Source: Octopus vulgaris
Taxonomy: Eukaryota
NCBI GenBank assembly: GCA_951406725.2
Contig: OX597824.1
Location: 54,932,001 to 54,996,000 of the forward strand
Direction: 5' to 3'
DNA length: 64,000 nt
Shown: positions 4,090-61,308 of the stretch, piece after piece
How positions within the stretch are numbered: position 1 is the first letter of the stretch
Layout of the letters: every line of letters begins with the position of its first letter
The notes under the pieces: generated by a model
What the model was told of the DNA's origin: nothing
The model's database searches: none
Seen by the model: only the letters and a program-made list of their open reading frames with translations
Made by a program: the position numbers and the translations under genes

Positions 4090-4320
4090 CGGTTTATTTA
4101 ATTTATATAAAAATTTTATGTATTGATTAAGTCTTTCCTTGTTTGTTTTGCAAAATAGTGGTTTTGTCTCGAATTAATATTATATATATATATATATAAT
4201 ATTATATATATATATATATAATATTAATTCGAGACAAAACCACTATTTTGCAAAACAAACAAGGAAAGACTTAATCAATACATAAAATTTTAATATAAAT
4301 TAAATAAACCGCCACTACAA
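4081..4320. repeat. Inverted repeat of a pseudo-LTR tail around a (TA)n spacer
   Basis: 4081-~4180 is the near-perfect reverse complement of ~4221-4320. Confidence 0.9.
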
Positions 4321-4348
4321 TATATATATTGTGTGTGTGTGTGTGTGT

Positions 4349-4610
4349 GGAGGCGCAATAGCCCAGTGGTTAGGGCAGCGGACTCGCAGTCGTTGGATCG
4401 TGGTTTCGATTCCCAGACCGGGTGTTGTGAGTGTTTATTGAGCGAAAACACCTAAAAGCTCCACGAGGCTGGGGGTGGTGGCGGTACCTGCTGTACTCTT
4501 TCGCTACAACTTTCTCTCACCCTTTCTTCTGTTGGCCTGCTCGCTTAGCCAAGCGGGGTGGCGTCATTCGAAGGCTAAAACGATGCGAAAGCATTGTGAC
4601 CAGCGAAGTA
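4349..4610 (+). mobile_element. tRNA-derived SINE (truncated)
   Basis: ggaggcgcaatagcccagtggttaggg (A box) and ggtttcgattccc (B box); homologous to 38891-39281. Confidence 0.85.
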
Positions 4611-5699: not shown

Positions 5700-8030
5700 T
5701 TAATTGTTTGTCGTAGACCCGTTAAGAAGTGGCCTGTATTTTGTAATAAAGAGATTTTCTTTACTTATTCGTTGTCTCGAGGTTGTATCGTCCCTAAATT
5801 GGTAGAGGGGGAAAATTCTGAAGTTTGGTGTTTTTTTGTTGGCGCAAGTATCTATGTGTTGGCTAAAAGCTATTTTTCTGTTTTGGGGAATTTTTATCTG
5901 GGATCTGTGCAGGGCCATTCGTTTACGCAAACCATTTTTTGTTTGGCCTATGTACTGCTCTTGACACCCGGAGCAGGTTAATGAGTATATTAGGTTCTCC
6001 GAAGCACATGTGAAGTTGCTTTTCACTGTAAACCGTTGTCCCTGTTTGAAGGAGAACTCTGATCCCTCAATTAGATAGTCGCATATCCCGCAATTGGGTC
6101 TTCCACATTTTTTTACTGTCGGCTTCAGTGTTGAAGAGTGAATTCGGGCTTGTGTTAGGAGACTTTTCATGGATCTAGGCTGTCTTTTGCTTTTTATGAT
6201 CGTGTGTGTTTGGAGGATTGTGTTCATTCTGTGGTCTTTTTTTAGGAGGGGTATGTTGTGGAGGATGTTGCCGAAGGCTTCGTTATTGAGAGGGTTGTGT
6301 GTGGAGATGTATGGTAAGGCTTTTGGTTGTAAGTTTTTCTTTGATTTGGGATGTCTCAGTTCCTTGATGTTAAGTTGAAGGGCACGTTGAATGCACTTGT
6401 CAATAAGTGAAGGTGGATAGTTCCTGGTGATAAGGGTATCTTTTAGTTCTTGTAGTCGTGTGTCTCTGGTGTTTGCGTTAGAGACTATAGTGCATATCCT
6501 TTTTGCTAGATTGAAGGGGATATTCATCCTGGTGTGTCTGGGGTGGCATGAATTGAATGGAAGATATTGCTTAGAGTCTGTAGGCTTATAGTATATGTCT
6601 GTTTCTATTATATTATTAGCTTTCTTAATGAGGATATCGAGGAAGGGGAGTTGTTGCTGGCTATATTCCATCGTGAATTGGATGTTTACGTCCAGTCCGT
6701 TTAAAATTTCCTGGAATTCTATGAGTTTTTCTATATTTTTATGCCAAAGAATGAAACAGTCATCTAGATATCTCTTCCAGTTGTTTTCTATGTAGATGGA
6801 GAAAGGGCTGCCATATCTTTCTAGAACCTTACGATACAGACTGATCTCTAGGTATCCTATGACTAGGTTGGCAAAGGAGGGGGCCATTCGTGTACCCATT
6901 GCAGTCCCCGATTTTTGTCGGTAGAAGTTGTCATTGAAGGCGAAGAAGTTATTTTCCAGGATGAATTTAACCCCTTCTATCACGAATTCTTTTTTGATGC
7001 GGTGTGGTAGTTCGTTGGCGTGATTCTCTAGCCAGAATTGGATTGCCTCTAGTCCTAGGTTGTGGGGGATATTGGAGTAGAGGTTGGCTACATCGAAGGA
7101 TACCAGTATGGTGTTTTTGTTTATAGTATTCGGTAGGTGATTGAGCATATCTAAGTCGTCCCTTATATAGCTTTTGACATGTTTGAGGAGTGGTTTTAAC
7201 AGGGTGTCTAAAAAGTTACTGAGGCGGTGGGTTTCTCATGCGGGACCTGCTATTATGGGTCTCAATTTGAGGTCATTAGGATTAGGGACTTTAATTATTT
7301 TGTCTGTAGCTATCTTGCATGCGTTGCTTATTTTTTCACTTTTGTGGATCTTAGGTATACCGTAGAATTGGCTAGTTTTACTTGTGAAATTGGTCATATA
7401 ATCATATTCTTTGTCGGTGAGCCCTGCTTTGTATGTGTTTAATATGAATTTTAGTTCCCTCATTATTTTTTGTTGACTGTAGTTTTGTGCCTTTTCATAG
7501 TATGTTGTGTCTTCCAGCAGGGAAAGTACCAAAGTTATGTAAAATGTCGTATCCATTAAGACAACAGCACTCCCTTTATCGGCCTCCTTGATTGTTATTG
7601 TTTTATCTTGTTTTAATTTGTTCAACTCAGCCCATTCTTTTTTGCTGAAGTTTGGTTTGTGTTTTTGTTTGTGCATATGTTGATATGGGTAATTAGATAT
7701 GTGGTCACAGAAATCATCAAGTGTTTTGTTCTTACCTTTCGAGGGGGTGTAGTTACTCCTATTTCTGGCTAACGATTCGTCCTCGTTGTATTTATCGTAT
7801 AGCTCTTCAGTAAGTCTTAATTTTCTGCAGAATTCTGCGATGTCTTCTTTCATTTCGTTGTAGTTGGGGTGTTATGGGGTGGGTGTAAACTTGAGTCCTT
7901 TGGAAAGTATGTTTATTTGGTTTGCTGTTAGTTCCTTGTGAGTTAGATTGATAATTTTTATTACTTTTGGTTCCTCCTGCTTGTTTGGTGCTATCTTGTG
8001 TCTCTGTGTTTGCGTATTGGGTCTAAAAAA
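5700..8030 (-). pseudogene. PLE RT-GIY-YIG reading frame with two in-frame stops
   Basis: ORFs 7236-7853 and 5700-7148 share a frame and are split by TGA at 7238-7236; TAA at about 7873; the frame continues upstream through LSKGLKFTPTP to about 8050. Confidence 0.85.
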
Positions 8031-11045: not shown

Positions 11046-12570
11046 ATGCGCTATTGGAGACGCTGCCATTAATTGACGTGGAGGCCGAGGGGAAGACGTT
11101 CAAGGCCCTCGTGGATACGGGCTGTACGACCACCCTTGTGACTTCAAGGGTGACGAAGGAATGAAACGGGGCAAGTAGCGTCCGGGCGGTCGACGGCAGC
11201 GAAATCTGTTGCAGAGGCAGCAGCAAGGTAGAGATAGTGGTGCGCGGCGCGACGCTAAGACTGCAGATAATTGTGGCTGAACGCGTGATAGATGGGGTTG
11301 ATGTGGTGATGGGGATGGACGCCATCAACAGTCTCGGTGGCGTCGGTGTTGTGGGAAATGAGGTCACGTTCGGAAGCGTGGGGGCGTCGTGCACTGCGAG
11401 TCAGGATCGCCAGAGAGAGCAGAGCCCCGCGAGGGACTGCGCCGCTTACACCATCGAGGACAAAGACTTTCAGGCGGTGTTTGATGGTCAACGGTGGACG
11501 ATAGAGTAGCGATGGAAGGACGAGCCCCCGACGCTGGAAAACAGGGTGAGCTGCTACCAGCATACCCTGAAAGGCCACACCAGGGTTGAGTTTGAAGACG
11601 AGGTGGAGAGGTGGATCGAGGAAGGGGTCCTTGTCCCTTGGAAGAAAGAGGTAGCGGGCGGAGTGCTACCCCTGATGGCGGTGGTGCAGCCTACGAAGGG
11701 AAAAGTCAGACCGGTGCTGGACTTCAGGGAGTTAAACCAGCATATATCGTGTCACACGGGAAGTGAGGCGACGGACGTTTGTGGCGAGACGTTACGTGCG
11801 TGGAGACAGTCGACCAAGGCAGCAACGATTGTCGACTTGAAATCGGCATACTTGCAGCTCCATGTGAGCGACAAACTGTGGCGATATCAGCTGGTCCGGT
11901 ACAAAGGCGGACGTACTGTTTAACCAGGCTGGGTTTCGGGCTGAATTCCACTCCGAAGATCATGGCGGCAGTGCTTAAGTCCGTCCGAGGGAAAGACGGC
12001 AAGATTAGAAAGGCCACCAGCTCCTACATTGACGACATTTTGGTGGATGAAACTGTAGTGCCAGCCAACGAGGTAGTTAGACATCTGGAGAAGTTCGGAC
12101 TGATTGCGAAGCCACCGGAGTCAATGGAAGGGGGAGCCGCGCTGGAGCTGAAGCTGCGAAGAGATAGATCGGGTGAATTGGTGTTCCGGAGAGGGAATGA
12201 AAACCCAGATCTGAGTTCCAGCGTCAGCAGGAGAGAGCTATTCTCGGTGTGTGGGAAGTTGGTCGGTCCCTACCTGATCGCTGGATGGCTGCGCACGGCG
12301 TGTAGTTACACCAAGAGACGAGCAGAGGGGGAGAGTTGGGGCGACAAGGTGGGAGAAGGGACGGTGGCGATGATGCAGGAAATCCTAGAGAGGACGAGAG
12401 CGGAAGACCCAGTCAGGGTGAACTGGTACGTGCCCAAGACGGAATGCGGGACCGTCTGGTGTGATGCTAGCAGTATAGCGATAGAGGTTGTGTTGGCGAT
12501 CGAAGGCGCTGAGGTGGAGGACGCGGCCTGGCTTTTTTAAGCAGATGACTTTAACCACATCATTGTCGCC

Positions 12571-15500
12571 GGAAGTGGGGTGTTGGTCCTGGTGAAAAAG
12601 AACCGGGTTTCTGAGAAAAAGTTGATTTTTGCAGATCCAGAAGGTAGGCTGGTCGTCGTTGATTTGACGTTCAGCAGTCGTCAGACAATCAGACTGGTTG
12701 CGGTTTACGCCCCCAATAATAAGGGGAATAGTGAGTATTTTCGGAATCTGGAGAGGTTTCTAGGTACATCGTGCCCTTTAGTAATGTTAGGAGACTACAA
12801 CACAATCTGCAATGTGCGGGTAGACTGTGTAGGCTCGCAAACAGACAGGAAAGGAAATGCTTGCTTCCTGGATCTACTAAGATGTTTTGAGCTGGTAGAT
12901 CCATATAGACTGGAACATCCGGACGCTCCATTGTGGACATGGACAAACAGCGACGGATCGTCAAGGTCATACATAGACAGGATTTTAATTAGGAAGGTAG
13001 ATAGAAACCTAGTTAAGAGTCCACAGCTCCACATAGTCAGCTACAGTGACCACAAGATGGTCACCTGTAAGCTAGACGTAGATAAGATAAATAGAGGTCC
13101 TGGTTACTGGAAACTTAATACGTCCCTTTTGGCGATTAAGGAGTACAGTGACAGGATTATGTTAATGATCCAGAGGGCCATGACCGGCTCCATTATCAAT
13201 AACAAATGGTGGTATGCCCTCAAGCGAGCCATAAGATATGAGTCTATTAGATATAGTATAGATCTCGTAGCTAGAGAGGCTAGAAAAGAAACTACTCTAG
13301 TTAAGGACCTAGAGGAAGCAATGCGAACTGGCAACGCGGCTCAGGTGAAGGCCAAGAGACTGGTTTTAAACCAGCACCTCGAAGCCAAACACATGGGTTG
13401 TATTGTCAGAGCTAGACAACGTACAATGGGGAGCGAAGGAATTAATGCCGCGAGATGGGCCCGAGTGGTGGAAGCCCAGCGTGGCAACGATGACACAATT
13501 CGATCTCTGACGAACCAACAAGGTAAGTTGACAGACGAGCCCGAGGAGATGTGTCAAGCTTTTCAGGACCACTTCGCCCAGCTCTTTGGGGGTGGCGGCG
13601 GGCCGGATGAGAGGAGGGACCTAACGGACCTTCTTGACGGACTGCCGCGCCTCTCGGGGCAGGATGCGGAGTGTAGTGAGAAGCCGATCACGCCTGAGGA
13701 GGTAATGGAGGCCATGGCAGACTGCGGTGCGGGTAAGGCGCCGGGACTGGATGGTCTGCCCTACGAGCTTTATAAAAGTATGCCGGACTTGTTCGGGGAC
13801 TTACTGGCGGACGTCTACGCGAACTGGCAGCAGAATGGGTTCATACCCAGATCTGTGCGCCGGGGAGTGGTGACACTAGTCAGGAAGGACCAGAGCAAGG
13901 GGGACGTCATTGATAATTTCAGGCCCATCACTCTGCTTAACGCAGAGTTGAAGATTTTGGCCAAAGTGTTATTGAACAGATTGGCGCATGTCGCGAATGG
14001 ACTGATCGGGAAAGCGCAAACGTGCGCCGTACCGGGCAAAACCATTCAGGATAATCTCCATCTAATTAGATACACGATAGAGGGAATGGATAATGATCCC
14101 GGCAAGGGAGAGGCAGTGGTCCATTTAGACCAGTCAAAAACTTTCGATAGGGTCGACCATCGTTACCTGGTGTCCGTCCTGGCTCAGTTCGGCCTGGGTC
14201 TTGGCTTCCTCAGGTGGATCATACAATTGTATGACAACGTCGACTCGGTAGTTCGGGTGAACGGCTTTATTTCTAAGCCGTTCAAAGTCAAACGCTCGGT
14301 CCGTCAGGGATGTCCGCTCTCCCCGCTTTTGTATGTAGTGGCTCTTGAGCCGCTGCTGCGAAAACTGAGTGGCATCCCGAGGCAGCCAGGTCGTGGAATG
14401 TCGGTTTCGGCGTACGCGGATGACATCACTATCATCGTGACCGAAATGGACCTCCTACGTAAAGTAGGCAAGGCCATAGAGGTTTACGAGACGGTGACAG
14501 GAGCAAAGGTTAATCGTGAAAAGTCAGTCGGCTTGCAACTCGGCACCTGGAGAGGCAAGTCGATGCCTCCAGACAGCGTCGTGGGACGTTGGACGGAGGG
14601 CCCGATTAAGTTGCTCGGGGTTTGGTTCGGACCAGGCCTCCAAATAGAGAAGAACTGGAGCGAGGTATCGAGCAGGGTGACCGCAGTAGTCAACACCTGG
14701 TCTTGGCGGTGGTTATCCCTGAAAGGTAGGGCGGAGGTAGCCAATGTGTTCATCGCATTGGTGATCACCTACCGCCTTGCCGTCGTGCCTCGCCCGGATT
14801 CGTGGTTGAACAAGTTGGAGAGACAGCTCTTTCACTTTTTGTGGAAGGGCTCGAAACCACTTGTGAAACGCTCTATTTGCTGTCAAAAACCGTTACAGGG
14901 TGGACTAGGGATGCCGTGGCTAATGATGCGCAGAAATGCGCTGAGGCTAAGGCACCTGTGGCTCCATCTGGATGGTGAACGGGTGTGGTCTCCGCTGGCG
15001 AAGCAGACGTTCCCCAGGTTCACCAGTTTCGGTGGACGGGAAGACTGGTATAATCGTAGATCGAAGTTGGGTACATGGTACACGGAGTGCCGTAAGGCAC
15101 TCCGACTATTCCGTCGCTCGGGCAATGCCTGCGGCAGTGGTTCTACCGCTGTGTTTTATAAAGGTTTTGTAGAGGCCGGTAACGATGATACGCTAGGGGA
15201 AACCCTAGGTTTCAACGATAATCAGCTGGCCAGTCTGTTCCAACGTACATTCGGGCCGAAGGCACTGGATAATTTCCAGAAGTCTTTGGCTTGGCAGTGT
15301 TACCGAGGAGCCTTACCTGTTCGAGATAAACACGCAAGGCATGGTGCCCCAGTCAGCCCGACCTGCGCAAAATGTGGGCAAGATAGGGAAACCGTCTCGC
15401 ACGCGATCGTGCAGTGCCCAGGGGTGACAGACATGTGGGTTCATGCCAAACAACTGATGCCAAGTGGAGGAAGAGTACAGCTATCAGCCGAATCCATTGT

Positions 15501-15765
15501 GAAAATCAGCCCACCTGATTTCTTAACGAAAGAAGGTAAGAATTGTTTTCTCTCTGTGGTTTCAATTGCGAAACAGGCAGTATGGAAGACACGGGTGAAA
15601 GGGATGCTAACAGGCGACTTCATCTCCGGTTCTAGTCTTGTGGAATACTTCAAATTCCACCTGAAAAGACAAATAGAACTGGAGAGGAGGAGCCTGAGTA
15701 AGAAAGTGTTCGATGAAAGGTGGAAGAATGTGGCGAATAAAAGGTCCCTCACAAATACGAGATAG
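12571..15765 (+). CDS. L1/Tx1-clade ORF2 (APE endonuclease lacking its N-terminus, RT, CCHC finger), open for over 1060 aa
   Basis: VYAPN, LGDYN, SYIDR, SDH, GPGYWKLN, RQGCPLSPLLY, AYADD, CAKC...ETVSHAIVQC; T-rich 3' UTR to about 15995. Confidence 0.93.
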   Translation, partial: GSGVLVLVKKNRVSEKKLIFADPEGRLVVVDLTFSSRQTIRLVAVYAPNNKGNSEYFRNLERFLGTSCPLVMLGDYNTICNVRVDCVGSQTDRKGNACFLDLLRCFELVDPYRLEHPDAPLWTWTNSDGSSRSYIDRILIRKVDRNLVKSPQLHIVSYSDHKMVTCKLDVDKINRGPGYWKLNTSLLAIKEYSDRIMLMIQRAMTGSIINNKWWYALKRAIRYESIRYSIDLVAREARKETTLVKDLEEAMRTGNAAQVKAKRLVLNQHLEAKHMGCIVRARQRTMGSEGINAARWARVVEAQRGNDDTIRSLTNQQGKLTDEPEEMCQAFQDHFAQLFGGGGGPDERRDLTDLLDGLPRLSGQDAECSEKPITPEEVMEAMADCGAGKAPGLDGLPYELYKSMPDLFGDLLADVYANWQQNGFIPRSVRRGVVTLVRKDQSKGDVIDNFRPITLLNAELKILAKVLLNRLAHVANGLIGKAQTCAVPGKTIQDNLHLIRYTIEGMDNDPGKGEAVVHLDQSKTFDRVDHRYLVSVLAQFGLGLGFLRWIIQLYDNVDSVVRVNGFISKPFKVKRSVRQGCPLSPLLYVVALEPLLRKLSGIPRQPGRGMSVSAYADDITIIVTEMDLLRKVGKAIEVYETVTGAKVNREKSVGLQLGTWRGKSMPPDSVVGRWTEGPIKLLGVWFGPGLQIEKNWSEVSSRVTAVVNTWSWRWLSLKGRAEVANVFIALVITYRLAVVPRPDSWLNKLERQLFHFLWKGSKPLVKRSICCQKPLQGGLGMPWLMMRRNALRLRHLWLHLDGERVWSPLAKQTFPRFTSFGGREDWYNRRSKLGTWYTECRKALRLFRRSGNACGSGSTAVFYKGFVEAGNDDTLGETLGFNDNQLASLFQRTFGPKALDNFQKSLAWQCYRGALPVRDKHARHGAPVSPTCAKCGQDRETVSHAIVQCPGVTDMWVHAKQLMPSGGRVQLSAESIVKISPPDFLTKEGKNCFLSVVSIAKQAVWKTRVKGMLTGDFISGSSLVEYFKFHLKRQIELERRSLSKKVFDERWKNVANKRSLTNTR

Positions 15766-53880: not shown

Positions 53881-54004
53881 ATATGTATATATATACATAT
53901 ATATATATACATACAACTATATATATATATATATATATACATACATATATATATACATACATATATATATATATATATACATACATATATATATATACAT
54001 ATAC

Positions 54005-54040
<36 letters not shown>

Positions 54041-54042
<2 letters not shown>

Positions 54043-55952
54043 CTCTTTTACTCTTTTACTTGTTTCAGCCATCCGGCTGAGGCCATGCTGGGGCACCGCC
54101 CTTGTTGCTACCCTCTCTAAGTCCAGTTTGCCGTGGCTGGCTACTGATCTAAGAGAGAGTTTGTAGCTGCTGCCCTTAGGTTACCTTCGTACCTTGCAGT
54201 GGGTTCATCTGGGATCCCGGAAAGCAGCTTGTCTAGATGTTTTTTGAAAATGTCCACATCCGCATCATGTAGATCTCTTAGTTTTCTTGGCAGTTTGTTG
54301 AACAGCTGAGGGCCCCTGAACCCCAGGCTATTACAGTATCTGCTCCTTACCCTGGATGTGGAAGACGGGACCTTTGGCACCACACAGTGACGTCCTGTAC
54401 GGGGATTGGAACAGCTCTCAATTCCAAAATTTGGTGCTAGTCCCTCCAGGATTTTCCATATGTATATCACTGCATATCTCTCTCGTCTTCGTTCCAAGGA
54501 GTACAAATTGAGTTCCCTAAGCCTCTCCCAATAGTTCTTTTCTTTCATGGTGGAAATCCTCTTGGTGAAATGTCTTTGGATTGTCTCAAGCTCTGTGGTT
54601 AGTTTGACACTATGCGGTGACCACAGTTGGGAGCAGTAGTCCAGGCGTCTTAGGACAAATGTCCTCCATAGTGTCAACATGGTCTCGCAGTCTCTTGTCC
54701 GGAATGTCCTCAGGATCCAGCCAGTGAGTCGTCTGCACATTGTCGCCACCTTCGCGATGTGTGAAGAAAAAGATGCATCGTCACTCATGTCTATCCCCAG
54801 GTCCCGTATTGATTTCGATACTGGGATTTCGATCCCTCCTGGACCAGTATAGTTGTGTTGTAATGTATATGTGTTTACAGCTTGATATTGTAAGGCTTGA
54901 AATTTACCAGCATTAAATTGCATGTTGTTGTCTTCAGCCCATTTGTATATGGCATCCAGATCTTGTTGTAAAAGGTCAGCATCAGCTGGGTTTTTGATTG
55001 CCTGTGCTACCTTTGTGTCATCAGCATAGCTAGTGAGGGATGTTGTTAGTGCTACCAAGGGCATGTCAGAGAGCGCCACCAAAAACAGCAAGGGTCCCAA
55101 GACTGTGCCCTGTGGCACCCCGCTTGCTATTGGTGTCTTTCCCGAGAGGGCTCCATTGGCTGCAACCATCTGGCTTCTGTCCTTCAGGAAGTCATGTATC
55201 CACTCACCTACTTTTCCTGTTATGCCGAGTCTGAGTAATTTGTGACATATCACTCCGTGGTCGACTTTGTCAAAGGCCTTCGCAAAGTCGAGATATACCA
55301 CATCCACCTGTGAGCGATCCAGTAGTTGTTTCAGTACCCAGTCGTAGTGTTGTAACAGCTGCGTAAGGCAGCTTCTTCCTGGGCGAAAGCCATGCTGTGT
55401 GTCAGTGAGACGGTTAGTTTCTTCGAGGAACGTGATCAGTTTTTTTCTGATGATTCGTTCCATGACCTTACTTATGTGTGACGTCAGGGAGACTGGCCTG
55501 TAGTTTTTGGCCTCTGCTCTACTCCCTCCTTTGTGGATAGGGCATATGGTGCCTTCTTTTAGCGCCCTGGGCAGTTTACCGTTAGCCAAGGAACCACTGA
55601 AGAGCTTCTTCAGTGGTCCCGCTAGGGCATGCCTGCATGTTTTTAGGAGGACTGCTGGGAATCTATCTGGTCCAGCAGCTGAGTTTATTCTCATTTCTTC
55701 TATGGCAGATATTACATCCCTCTCTGTTATGTCTATGTGGTCGATGGTTGTTGTTTGGTTTTGGAGTGTTGTGGCATCAAAGAAAACTTCTGGGTTTGTG
55801 ATTTGCATGTGCCCCAGAGGGGATGTGAACACACTTTTATACTGTTCCTTTAGTATTTCACTTATCCCTTGGGGGTCCTCAGTTAGAGAGCCCTTTTTAT
55901 CAAAGAGTGGGCCAATCTTGCAGTGTACCGAGGTGGTTTCTTTCGCAAATTT
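54041..55952 (-). mobile_element. CR1/Jockey-group LINE, 5'-truncated copy 1
   Basis: [33 protein letters not shown]; (GAGTAAAA)n tail; premature stop near the C-terminus. Confidence 0.9.
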
Positions 55953-55963
55953 ATATGTATATA

Positions 55964-56040
<77 letters not shown>

Positions 56041-56177
56041 GTATATATATATGTATATGTATATATATATATGTGTATATATATATATGTATATATATGT
56101 ATATATATAAATATATTTTATATATATATATATATATATGTATGTATATATGTATGTATATATGAATGTATATATGA

Positions 56178-56475
56178 TACTGTAATAGCCTGGGGTTTAG
56201 GGGCCCTCAGCTGTTCAACAAACTGCCAAGAAAACTAAGAGATCTACATGATGCGGATGTGGACATTTTCAAAAAACATCTAGACAAGCTGCTTTCCGGG
56301 ATCCCAGATGAACCCACTGCAAGGTACGAAGGTAACCTAAGGGCAGCAGCTACAAACTCTCTCTTAGATCAGTGGCCAGCCACGGCAAACTGGACTTAGA
56401 GAGGGTAGCAACAAGGGCGGTGCCCCAGCATGGCCTCAGCCGGATGGCTGAAACAAGTAAAAGAGTAAAAGAGTA
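56178..56475 (+). mobile_element. Same LINE, short 3' fragment in the opposite orientation
   Basis: Reverse complement of 54041-54336. Confidence 0.9.
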
Positions 56476-56560
56476 TATACATATACATATATATATATAC
56501 ATATACATATACATATATACATATATATATACATATATATATATATACATATATATATAC

Positions 56561-56591
<31 letters not shown>

Positions 56592-56908
56592 CATACATAT
56601 ATATATACATATATACATATAATTTCAACAATTGAGGGTAAAATTAATTAATTATTAATCAATTTCACCAAGTATTCAGTATGTAAAGGGACCATTTAAG
56701 GCGAATTCAAATTATTACATTATATAAAAGGGCTTAGTAAAATAAATTACTTTGCCACATACTGAACTCATTAGAAATAGTAGCTAAAAAAACTTTTTTA
56801 AAACTATTTCTAATACTTAAAGAAAATCTCTCTCATATAGTGTTTGCTCAATTCAACTCACGAAAGTATGGGGGTAAAGACATTAAAAAATCAAATGCAA
56901 AGGTTATT

Positions 56909-56960
56909 TGAGAACGTACGTTTCAAGATTAGTCAACTCGACATTTCTATCATCAGCTCA
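56909..56960 (-). ncRNA. Type I hammerhead ribozyme
   Basis: Minus strand reads tgag-CTGATGA-…gtc gagtt gac…-GAAA-cgtacg-TT-ctca; palindromic stem III. Confidence 0.72.
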
Positions 56961-57674
56961 GAACTCCTTGGTTTGGATTTGAAAACACTGAAAGTGGGAG
57001 CATACCCTTTCGGCTTCTTATCGCTTCTGAAGATCTGCTCGAAACTAACAGTGCCAGCAAACCCAAAATATGCAAGCGAAGAATTTCTGCTCTCCCCTTT
57101 CCACCAGCGTGGGTTAAAATCAGTAAACACTATGCTTTTTCGGTAAAATCCGAAGCATTAAATAGAGAGAGATGAATTATAATTTCAACAATTGAGGGTA
57201 AAATTAATTAATTATTAATCAATTTCACCAAGTATTCAGTATGTAAAGGGACCATTTAAGGCGAATTCAAATTATTACATTATATAAAAGGGCTTAGTAA
57301 AATAAATTACTTTGCCACATACTGAACTCATTAGAAATAGTAGCTAAAAAAACTTTTTAAAACTATTTCTAATACTTAAAGAAAATCTCTCTCATATAGT
57401 GTTTGCTCAATTCAACTCACGAAAGTATTAATTTTACCCTCAATTGTTGAAATTATAATTCATCTCTCTCTATTTAATGCTTCGGATTTTACCGAAAAAG
57501 CATAGTGTTTACTGATTTTAACCCACGCTGGTGGAAAGGGGAGAGCAGAAATTCTTCGCTTGCATATTTTGGGTTTGCTGGCACTGTTAGTTTCGAGCAG
57601 ATCTTCAGAAGCGATAAGAAGCCGAAAGGGTATGCTCCCACTTTCAGTGTTTTCAAATCCAAACCAAGGAGTTC

Positions 57675-57726
57675 TGAGCTGATGATAGAAATGTCGAGTT
57701 GACTAATCTTGAAACGTACGTTCTCA
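57675..57726 (+). ncRNA. Type I hammerhead ribozyme (inverted copy)
   Basis: CTGATGA 57679-57685, GAAA 57711-57714, cgtacg, TT, ctca. Confidence 0.72.
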
Positions 57727-58004
57727 AATAACCTTTGCATTTGATTTTTTAATGTCTTTACCCCCATACTTTCGTGAGTTGAATTGAGCAAACACTATAT
57801 GAGAGAGATTTTCTTTAAGTATTAGAAATAGTTTTAAAAAAGTTTTTTTAGCTACTATTTCTAATGAGTTCAGTATGTGGCAAAGTAATTTATTTTACTA
57901 AGCCCTTTTATATAACATATATACATATATATATATACATATACACATATATATATATATACATATATATACATATACATATATATACATATATATATAT
58001 ACTT

Positions 58005-58542: not shown

Positions 58543-59008
58543 TATACTAAGTAATTAAGGGTTTAGCAACGATTTGCCTCACCACACACCGAATTTAGAA
58601 ATAGCAGTCAAAGAGTTATAGCTATTCTTTCTTCTAAAAGGGAGATCTCAGTAAAACCACAGCACTTGAAAGGCAAACACAGACAGGCAAGAGAGAAAGA
58701 AATGACGACAATCGACCATACAATATTAAGTCACCTACGGACGTACGTTTCGAAATTAAGTTTTAGGAAAGCATAAGAATTAGATAATTATGTCGAGATC
58801 TCCCTTTTAGTAGAAAGAATAGCTATAACTCTTTGACGGCTATTTCTAGATTCGGTGTGTGGTGAGGCAAATCGTTGCTAAACCCTAAATTACTTAGTAT
58901 TACTTAAACTTTCCTCGAATGGGGCTTTTACATGCCGAAATCTACTTGGTGAAATTAATGATTATTCCAAATTAATTAATTTCACCCTATATTATTACTG
59001 AAAATCAG
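58543..59008. repeat. Inverted-repeat pseudo-LTR relic related to the 560-bp monomer
   Basis: 58543-58650 pairs with 58795-58900; partial HHR (GAAAcgtacgTC, minus strand, about 58735-58752); tail resembles 56636-56675. Confidence 0.65.
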
Positions 59009-59047
59009 ATATATACATATATATATATACATATATATATATATACA

Positions 59048-61308
59048 TACTCTTTTACTCTTTTACTCTTTTACTTGTTTCAGCCATCCGGCTGAGGCCA
59101 TGCTGGGGCACCGCCCTTGTTGCTACCCTCTCTAAGTCCAGTTTGCCGTGGCTGGCCACTGATCTAAGAGAGAGTTTGTAGCTGCTGCCCTTAGGTTACC
59201 TTCGTACCTTGCAGTGGGTTCATCTGGGATCCCGGAAAGCAGCTTGTCTAGATGTTTTTTGAAAATGTCCACATCCGCATCATGTAGATCTCTTAGTTTT
59301 CTTGGCAGTTTGTTGAACAGCTGAGGGCCCCTGAACCCCAGGCTATTACAGTATCTGCTCCTTACCCTGGATGTGGAAGACGGGACCTTTGGCACCACAC
59401 AGTGACGACCTGTACGGGGATTGGAACAGCTCTCAATTCCAAAATTTGGTGCTAGTCCCTCCAGGATTTTCCATATGTATATCACTGCATATCTCTCTCG
59501 TCTTCGTTCCAAGGAGTACAAATTGAGTTCCCTAAGCCTCTCCCAATAGTTCTTTTCTTTCATGGTGGAAATCCTCTTGGTGAAATGTCTTTGGATTGTC
59601 TCAAGCTCTGTGGTTAGTTTGACACTATGCGGTGACCACAGTTGGGAGCAGTAGTCTAGGCGGCTTAGGACAAATGTCCTCCATAGTGTCAACATGGTCT
59701 CGCAGTCTCTTGTCCGGAATGTCCTCAGGATCCAGCCAGTGAGTCGTCTGCACATTGTCGCCACCTTCGCGATGTGTGAAGAAAAAGATGCATCGTCACT
59801 CATGTCTATCCCCAGGTCCCGTATTGATTTCGATACTGGGATTTCGATCCCTCCTGGACCAGTATAGTTGTGTTGTAATGTATATGTGTTTACAGCTTGA
59901 TATTGTAAGGCTTGAAATTTACCAGCATTAAATTGCATGTTGTTGTCTTCAGCCCATTTGTATATGGCATCCAGATCTTGTTGTAAAAGGTCAGCATCAG
60001 CTGGGTTTTTGATTGCCTGTGCTACCTTTGTGTCATCAGCATAGCTAGTGAGGGATGTTGTTTGTGCTACCAAGGGCATGTCAGAGAGCGCCACCAAAAA
60101 CAGCAAGGGTCCCAAGACTGTGCCCTGTGGCACCCCGCTTGCTATTGGTGTCTTTCCCGAGAGGGCTCCATTGGCTGCAACCATCTGGCTTCTGTCCTTC
60201 AGGAAGTCATGTATCCACTCACCTACTTTTCCTGTTATGCCGAGTCTGAGTAATTTGTGACATATCACTCCGTGGTCGACTTTGTCAAAGGCCTTCGCAA
60301 AGTCGAGATATACCACATCCACCTGTGAGCGATCCAGTAGTTGTTTCAGCACCCAGTCGTAGTGTTGTAACAGCTGCGTAAGGCAGCTTCTTCCTGGGCG
60401 AAAGCCATGCTGTGTGTCAGTGAGACGGTTAGTTTCTTCGAGGAACGTGATCAGTTTTTTTCTGATGATTCGTTCCATGACCTTACTTATGTGTGACGTC
60501 AGGGAGACTGGCCTGTAGTTTTTGGCCTCTGCTCTACTCCCTCCTTTGTGGATAGGGCATATGGTGCCTTCTTTTAGCGCCCTGGGCAGTTTACCGTTAG
60601 CCAAGGAACCACTGAAGAGCATCTTCAGTGGTCCCGCTAGGGCATGCCTGCATGTTTTTAGGAGGACTGCTGGGAATCCATCTGGTCCAGCAGCTGAGTT
60701 TATTCTCATTTCTTCTATGGCAGATATTACATCCCTCTCTGTTATGTCTATGTGGTCGATGGTTGTTGTTTGGTTTTGGAGTGTTGTGGCATCAAAGAAA
60801 ACTTCTGGGTTTGTGATTTGCATGTGCCCCAGAGGGGATGTGAACACACTTTTATACTGTTCCTTTAGTATTTCACTTATCCCTTGGGGGTCCTCAGTTA
60901 GAGAGCCCTTTTTATCAAAGAGTGGGCCAATCTTGCAGTGTACCGAGGTGGTTTCTTTCGCAAATTTAAAGAAAGCTTTAGGGTTTGTTTTAATATTCTC
61001 TATGGCCCTGGCTTCTCTCTCTGCCCTCTCCTTCTCATAGGAAAGTTTGAGTGCAGTTTCCGTTTCAAAAAGTTTCAGGTGGAGTCCCTTATTGTTTCTC
61101 TGCCGTGCATTCAGTTGCTTCGAGAGCTTAGCTCTTCGCCTCATAAGTATTTTCCTGTCTCTGGGAATAACGTTCCTATGCCCGCTGGCTTTTTTCTCCG
61201 GGACAAACTTATGGCATATGTTCTGTATTGTTGTCATGAAATGTTGGAAATGTGTGTTGGTCTCTTGTGTGGTGATGAAGTCACTCCAGTCATGTTTTCG
61301 GATCTCTT

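Follow-up and report, generated by a model that had tools for sequence, protein, structure and literature searches.

Two fixed 3' end sites, one per arm, in insertions of a non-coding 560-nt hammerhead element of Octopus vulgaris

The window, i.e., the whole stretch of 64,000 nucleotides of Octopus vulgaris DNA analyzed here (assembly GCA_951406725.2, contig OX597824.1, positions 54,932,001 to 54,996,000), contains a young insertion of a 560-nt tandem element that is non-coding, dispersed through the genome, and bears a hammerhead motif. Insertions of this family often have two arms, whose outward-facing 3' ends almost always lie at two fixed sites, one site for each arm. We think it probable that the element is a non-autonomous Penelope-like element (PLE) of the non-LTR retrozyme type, which a Penelope RT-endonuclease copies in trans while priming from both ends of a DNA break.

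Layout of the window locus

Unit M, the 560 nt on the minus strand from 57179 to 56620 of the window, is the reference for all M positions. The features of the locus and its surroundings are as follows, in window coordinates.

56474..56619, no strand: left (TA/TACA)n target microsatellite
56620..57179, minus strand: full unit M1-560; its 3' end at 56620 is site A and abuts the TA microsatellite
56637..56766, minus strand: conserved three-helix 3' module, M414-543, aligned from 15 segments of three families
56909..56960, minus strand: type I hammerhead motif, M220-271; predicted cut between 56913 and 56912 (M267/268)
57180..57428, minus strand: 5'-truncated upstream unit M311-560, 249 nt, no hammerhead, one 1-nt indel relative to the full unit
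57427..57428, no strand: meeting point of the 5' ends of both arms; the alignments overlap by 2 nt (microhomology)
57427..57915, plus strand: inverted arm M532-560 plus M1-460, 489 nt; its 3' end at 57915 is site B
57675..57726, plus strand: hammerhead of the inverted arm (second copy), with its cut predicted between 57722 and 57723
57916..58001, no strand: right (TA/TACA)n target microsatellite
58544..59008, no strand: two-armed insertion of the sister family F2 in a neighboring TA tract, with A/B ends as in M and only the 3' half of the hammerhead

The direct block (M311-560 followed by M1-560, from 57428 to 56620) is 809 nt long and is joined 5' to 5' with the inverted block, both outer ends being 3' ends that run into (TA/TACA)n. 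The first-pass annotation had described a 560-nt unit with head-to-tail and inverted copies, and its coordinates proved right to within 1-2 nt. Its estimate of about 1.45 tandem units also stands, but the units it called identical are 99.6% identical over their overlap, with a single 1-nt homopolymer indel. The inverted copy does span the unit junction, as annotated, and is 100% complementary to 56720-57208 over its 489 nt. The absence of a credible open reading frame was likewise borne out: the longest ATG ORF in a concatemer of M has 18 aa in sense and 92 aa in antisense. The RT plus GIY-YIG ORF between pLTRs that is a trait of autonomous PLEs was found neither in M nor contiguous with the element. 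A search of M for Pol III box A/B motifs found none, and the sense strand has 11 runs of four or more T.

The insertion shares its TA-rich cluster with nested 5'-truncated LINE copies (54001-55953, 56176-56475, and 59013-60968), which are 98-100% identical, have short tandem 3' tails, and occur in both orientations. The window also holds a further LINE frame of 1,074 aa (12541-15765) and, on the minus strand at 5700-7871, a broken PLE with Pfam hits to RT plus GIY-YIG and one in-frame stop.

Families, hammerhead, and fold

We searched a genome of 2.8 Gb in 227 contigs. Similarity to M gave 1,739 first-look candidates, 40 of which were scored, and full-length copies that are 97-100% identical were found on many contigs. 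The first-pass view of a retrozyme-type, recently active, non-coding hammerhead unit is supported. Most loci have 1-3 units, while dispersed arrays reach ~14 units, with one hammerhead core per unit. Older subfamilies of the family of M (F1) have units of 545-566 nt and 72-97% identity. Two sister families are colinear with M: F2 (unit ~583-594 nt, ~60-66% identical to M, longer stem II, 2,617 first-look candidates genome-wide) and F3 (561-562 nt). F3 was found at L335:936-1497 (C1:22.62 Mb) and at L330-L354; it is young and tandem, with A/B ends as in M. All three families are non-coding, with units of 545-594 nt that are 60-78% identical, and share one common fold. Among 66 loci screened, none had a frame of at least 200 aa contiguous with the element, and Hydra-type ORF pieces occurred at three, always beyond TA tracts. 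The sequence is contained in sequencing runs of nine studies, none of them recorded as RNA; such contig data are uninformative on expression, ends, strand, and circles.

The hammerhead of the window has a 4-bp stem I, a U.U at the base of stem II, and a 2-bp stem III with a palindromic loop, whose computed duplex energy is -11.6 kcal/mol. As first annotated, there is one per full unit with a palindromic stem III: the core is present in the full unit and in the inverted arm, and missing from the partial unit. With one hammerhead per strand, the locus is itself unable to release a monomer by double cleavage. We call the motif a ribozyme because it combines the core motif with covariation between families and because a looser core pattern has 2,309 matches in the genome, against 3 for the reversed pattern. 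A 25-nt stretch of the hammerhead has 149 exact matches genome-wide, the control having 0. Stem I is altered on both sides between F1 and F2, stems I and II covary across the families, and the consensus fold recovers both stems. Position 10.1-11.1 is U.U, U-A, A-U, or G.U in F1 subfamilies and G10.1-C11.1 in F2, and position 17 is U, A, or C among the listed variants; the stem III loop of F3 is not palindromic. An Rfam search of this region gave no hammerhead at the gathering threshold nor at E<=5, and the weak matches were dismissed as TA-repeat or chance. M has the conserved core, the 4-5 bp helix I, the long helix II, and the small palindromic helix III by which Cervera & de la Pena (2014) defined the PLE-type variant. 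PLE-type hammerheads cleave weakly (PMC4209133), and that of the window's F1 subfamily may be weak as well, judging from the U.U at the base of stem II and the GUU cut triplet.

The RNA of M folds far better than its shuffles (z -6.9). The circular fold of the hammerhead strand reaches -149.6 kcal/mol and that of the complement -125.8, compared with -108.3 +/- 7.6 in the comparison set. In the three-helix module, 94.4% of the cells are paired (33-46% in slid controls) and 7 of the 34 pairs changed on both sides; the aligned sequences are related, and hence the shuffle counts should not be read as probabilities. Site B falls immediately 3' of helix 2, within a large open loop, and site A follows helix 3 at a distance of ~17 nt on the 3' side; both offer TA microhomology. 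For the whole unit (10 sequences of F1 and F3), 25 of the 136 predicted pairs are compensatory, and the hammerhead is exposed at the tip of a predicted rod that pairs about M50-115 with M275-340. Folding energy and the G.U-rich covariation favor the hammerhead strand as the structured RNA. Outside the ribozyme and the 3' module, two short motifs are kept in F1, F2, and F3, at M69-90 (57111..57090 of the window, minus strand) and M191-207; they are possible promoter or protein-binding elements.

End sites and arms

To count the ends, we took 98 F1-type loci, namely the 40 best matches, 27 loci from contigs 1-7 selected for an exact match to the ribozyme motif, and 31 loci of other subfamilies on contig 1. 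They were split into 105 insertions, with duplicates of one place counted once. Ends at M545 or more were scored as site A (mode 558-560) and ends at M430-478 as site B (mode 461). Two arms were found in 65 of the 105 insertions, all with the tails out and none with the heads out. Among these 65, we counted 60 A+B, no A+A, one scored B+B, and four with another end; the single B+B becomes A+B on visual inspection if the alignment is carried across a 186-nt insertion. The first 40 loci are biased toward site-A ends by the query, but the motif-chosen sets are free of end bias and gave A+B in 18/18 and 19/21 cases. One-armed copies end at A in 20 cases, at B in 16, and elsewhere in four. The same rule was followed by 15 of 19 two-armed F2 inserts (by eye and query-biased) and by 7/7 of F3 (by eye, omitting one 84% palindromic match in L337). 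Among the loci displayed, flanks are TA-rich by eye at nearly all 3' ends, and target-site duplications are unreadable within (TA)n.

The first-pass annotation had taken a permuted insert of greater than unit length as the footprint of a circular RNA, and proposed checking whether genomic copies start at varied permutation points. As a diagnostic of circles, this is not supported: the 3' ends sit at two fixed sites and only the 5' ends are scattered, which rejects randomly permuted ends, and coding Hydra-type PLEs make the same inserts, so that the anatomy is not diagnostic of circles. The unit junction would mark a priming site rather than the ribozyme cut. TA microhomology alone was also rejected as the cause of the end sites, since the TATA at M341 is unused as an end.

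Only 4 of 169 5' ends lie within 5 nt of the predicted cut site, compared with 3.3 expected. A pile-up there had been hinted at by two early matches, and counting showed no enrichment; hence, cut linear monomers are not the templates. Furthermore, 153 segments cross the predicted cut site without an indel (first 67 loci), and 36 of the 105 insertions hold two same-strand hammerheads. In the 60 A+B inserts, the arm lengths are uncorrelated (rho 0.01), and in 21 of them neither arm is contained in the other, when independence predicts 19.4. Independent lengths and non-nested arms imply that each arm needed a separate pass over the template. Near-symmetric junctions are in excess (9/60, 3.2 expected, p about 0.004), making fold-back possible in a minority of inserts. 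In the duplicated loci L210 and L211 (C9:28.70 and 28.78 Mb), an internal inversion and loss set the two F1 inserts apart, which suggests recombination between inverted arms after insertion.

Insertion mechanism, template, and known systems

The reading that we consider probable, i.e., trans-mobilization by a PLE, builds on the (TA)n targets, the two tail-out arms, the A/B ends, the random 5' ends, the independence of the arms, and the fold common to three families. An enzyme that is probably dimeric and probably belongs to the Hydra clade would cut both strands in (TA)n. From one DNA end, cDNA synthesis would then be primed at site A, and from the other at site B, on RNA from the same source. 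Each cDNA would reach a variable length, passing ribozyme sites that are uncut or re-ligated, and both 5'-truncated products would be joined by microhomology. Several elements of this scheme have precedents. In vitro, a PLE protein, predicted to dimerize, cuts and extends both strands, uses two internal RT starts that match the genomic tail, and can dispense with ribozyme cleavage (Frangieh 2024, PMC11167929). Craig 2021 (PMC8557442) reports tandem-plus-inverted inserts in which a single end bears a tail of 30-40 bp, and also that Hydra elements target (TA)n. The following points speak against the trans-PLE reading: no partner was found among five PLE families, the tail of ~100 nt compares with 30-40 nt in the literature, near-symmetric junctions are in excess, and in vitro the start site of the PLE is the same for both strands (PMC11167929).

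A fold-back of the first arm on itself (self-priming), or an antisense template, with the tail difference arising from endonuclease resolution, might instead have produced the inverted arm. This route was proposed for rotifer Penelopes by Arkhipova 2013, who also describes inverted pLTRs, tails, and trans-mobilization (PMC3846280), and tails by resolution appear in PMC8557442. The excess of near-symmetric junctions agrees with it, as does the window itself, where the short arm lies wholly inside the long arm and is identical to it. We nevertheless find it improbable as the general explanation, because non-nested arms are as frequent as independence predicts and because covariation and energy point to the hammerhead strand as the structured RNA. 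Even less probable, in our view, is that a coding PLE left solo pseudo-LTRs behind, and that unequal exchange multiplied these remnants locally as a satellite, without retrotransposition of the units as such, a route proposed in Li, Clavereau & Pollet 2026 (bioRxiv 10.64898/2026.07.22.740005). Mosaic arrays and the internal inversion of L210/L211 do reveal local recombination. Yet the copies occupy dozens of unrelated loci on many contigs, each with its own 5' junction and all with two common 3' ends, whereas satellites form few large arrays without hallmarks of retrotransposition and here most loci have 1-3 units. The 66 loci without contiguous ORF and the single fold kept by three colinear non-coding families also speak against a satellite of this origin. 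The first-pass annotation had named pseudo-LTRs attached to coding PLEs as an alternative; the 66 loci without contiguous ORF and the lack of homology to the ends of five PLE families speak against it. As for a read or assembly chimera with a fold-back artefact, which had also been named, the perfect inverted identity in an AT-rich repeat context and the absence of the exact window junction among the read joints listed would fit. However, the same fixed-end anatomy recurs in 60 further insertions and in three families besides that of M, and the sequence is in the runs of nine studies, which leaves this explanation with a negligible probability.

The trans-PLE reading is compatible with several templates. 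One is a 560-nt circle, covalently closed by ligation after two hammerhead cleavages, in which case arms of more than one unit would be rolling-circle cDNA; we judge this template nearly as likely as its absence, with the balance slightly against it. The cut site is read through seamlessly in the 153 segments, with no stop at the site, and the pairs of same-strand hammerheads in 36 insertions, the stable fold, and the conserved rod, which would hold the cut ends together, all agree with a circle. So do arrays with 11/11 and 8/9 identical cut-to-cut units, which differ by about 2% at least from the other loci compared, and 15 locus-private substitutions that every covering unit carries, 10 of which occur in the two arms alike (119 were singletons). 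Circles also have precedents in coral, mussel, and axolotl retrozymes (PMC7229834). However, 13 private variants are common to only some units (16 were scored and three dropped as edge artefacts), with a period of 3 in L031 and mirrored across the arms in L034 and L036. Such variants are incompatible with a single monomer circle unless there was later conversion; multimeric templates, or recombination at a later stage, would account for the mosaic arrays. L210/L211 show that recombination happens locally, the identical 11-unit array is bounded by assembly gaps, coding PLEs produce the same greater-than-unit inserts, and the hammerhead may be weak, as its U.U and GUU triplet suggest. In vitro, uncut RNA predominated as substrate and mutating the ribozyme did not abolish insertion (PMC11167929), and only one of nine Xenopus dimers was cleaved (Li 2026). 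The array at L031 (C3:97078478-97086129) has ~14 units, and the recurrence of its variants about every third unit suggests a higher-order repeat.

More speculative, and rather doubtful as a whole, is a combined scheme in which all three families would form ~560-nt RNA circles, two hairpin-defined starts 100 nt apart would load the halves of a dimeric Hydra-type RT, and both break ends would be extended by rolling circle, one per site and without exception. If so, these insertions would record in the genome a target-primed reverse transcription that is two-ended and asymmetric, and would show directly how animal retrozymes are mobilized.

Neither the class of the element nor any of its ingredients (hammerhead repeats, inverted arm, tail, internal initiation) is new. 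M resembles metazoan non-LTR retrozymes in its non-coding tandem units with one type I hammerhead each, its low GC, its range from monomers to multimers, its stable fold, and its co-occurrence with PLEs. Its hammerhead is like axolotl HHR_Amex2 in the U.U at the base of helix II and the 2-bp helix III with a tetraloop; it is unlike those of metazoan retrozymes, and PLE-like, in its short stem I and the lack of a recognizable loop 1-loop 2 motif. The first-pass remark that the monomer exceeds known metazoan retrozymes is correct for those with demonstrated circles (170-400 nt; Cervera & de la Pena 2020, PMC7229834), from which M, known here from DNA alone, differs in length. It is not for the animal retrozymes that Li 2026 describes as non-autonomous PLE derivatives, since M falls within their 51-972 bp. 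Term searches of the main texts of Cervera 2020 and Li 2026 gave no description of inverted arms, tails, or fixed end sites. With EN+ PLE insertions, especially of the Hydra clade, M shares the partial tandem with an inverted 5'-truncated copy, the extension at one end, the (TA)n target, and a hammerhead with palindromic helix III (Arkhipova 2013, Craig 2021). Unlike them, it has no ORF, its tail is ~100 nt rather than 30-40, and it matches no pLTR examined. Poseidon PAc (PMC11167929) is similar in its two internal RT starts downstream of the hammerhead, which match genomic ends, its AT-rich target with both strands cut, and its ribozyme cut site that is unused as an end. The starts of PAc are adjacent, in an AC-rich stem-loop, non-homologous to the target, and the same for both strands, whereas those of M are ~100 nt apart, AU-rich, with TA microhomology, and one per arm.

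In the open-access literature, we found no inverted arms or two fixed ends in retrozymes, and no count of one arm per start. In L1 twin priming, two primers yield a 5' inversion. M would likewise combine two primers with a 5' inversion, but its second site is fixed, its arms are longer than one unit and overlap without constraint, and its ends lack poly(A). Both the mobilization of retrozymes and the origin of the tandem-plus-inverted inserts of Penelopes are called open in the literature. The M family links the two groups by anatomy, not by mere co-occurrence, and provides a near-strict, countable rule (one arm per start site, independent arms) together with a compact 130-nt structured signal.

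The genome has young PLE families with long stop-free frames of RT/endonuclease type, several of them with the Hydra motifs DKT, CxCX5C, CxxC, and CxH; with these Hydra-type elements, two-ended priming and the choice between circle and multimer become testable in vitro. Among the top-scoring loci of each search, the 781-aa, 785-aa, 899-aa, L230-type, and 717-aa families showed no terminal similarity to M. As these five families share no terminal sequence with M, the assignment of the copying enzyme to the Hydra clade would follow from the target and the end rule. M-like matches beside PLE ORFs were rejected as partners, being separate TA-tract insertions or a passenger mini-insert of the L230-type family. 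This old, two-armed, F1-type mini-insert (L230:2203-2440, L231, L232, L233, and about 11 further loci) sits in the long microsatellite-rich 3' region of a Hydra-type PLE. It ends at M461 and ~M556, its junction is the same in all copies, and it has been amplified along with the PLE as a passenger. What looked like a selenocysteine pair in this family turned out to be its true double stop.

The coding 899-aa Hydra-type PLEs (L201-L209, L242-L249) have a hammerhead with a long stem II and also make greater-than-unit tandem-plus-inverted inserts. They follow the two-end rule in 8 of the 9 cases with both ends seen, at about +60-70 and +216-227 from the cut, with a tail of about 160 nt, as compared to ~100 nt in the M family and the usual 30-40 nt. 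The 717-aa Hydra-type PLE (L355:3144-5294 and L300-L329) is very young and high-copy, with copies 98-100% identical. Its two-armed inserts are common, and its terminal repeat seems to hold a hammerhead-like motif with an altered core. Another hammerhead-bearing element, at L189:201-545 and 4251-4443, has a terminal hairpin that resembles that of M; one of its pieces directly abuts the 5' end of a Hydra-type PLE, possibly by a template switch between two RNAs.
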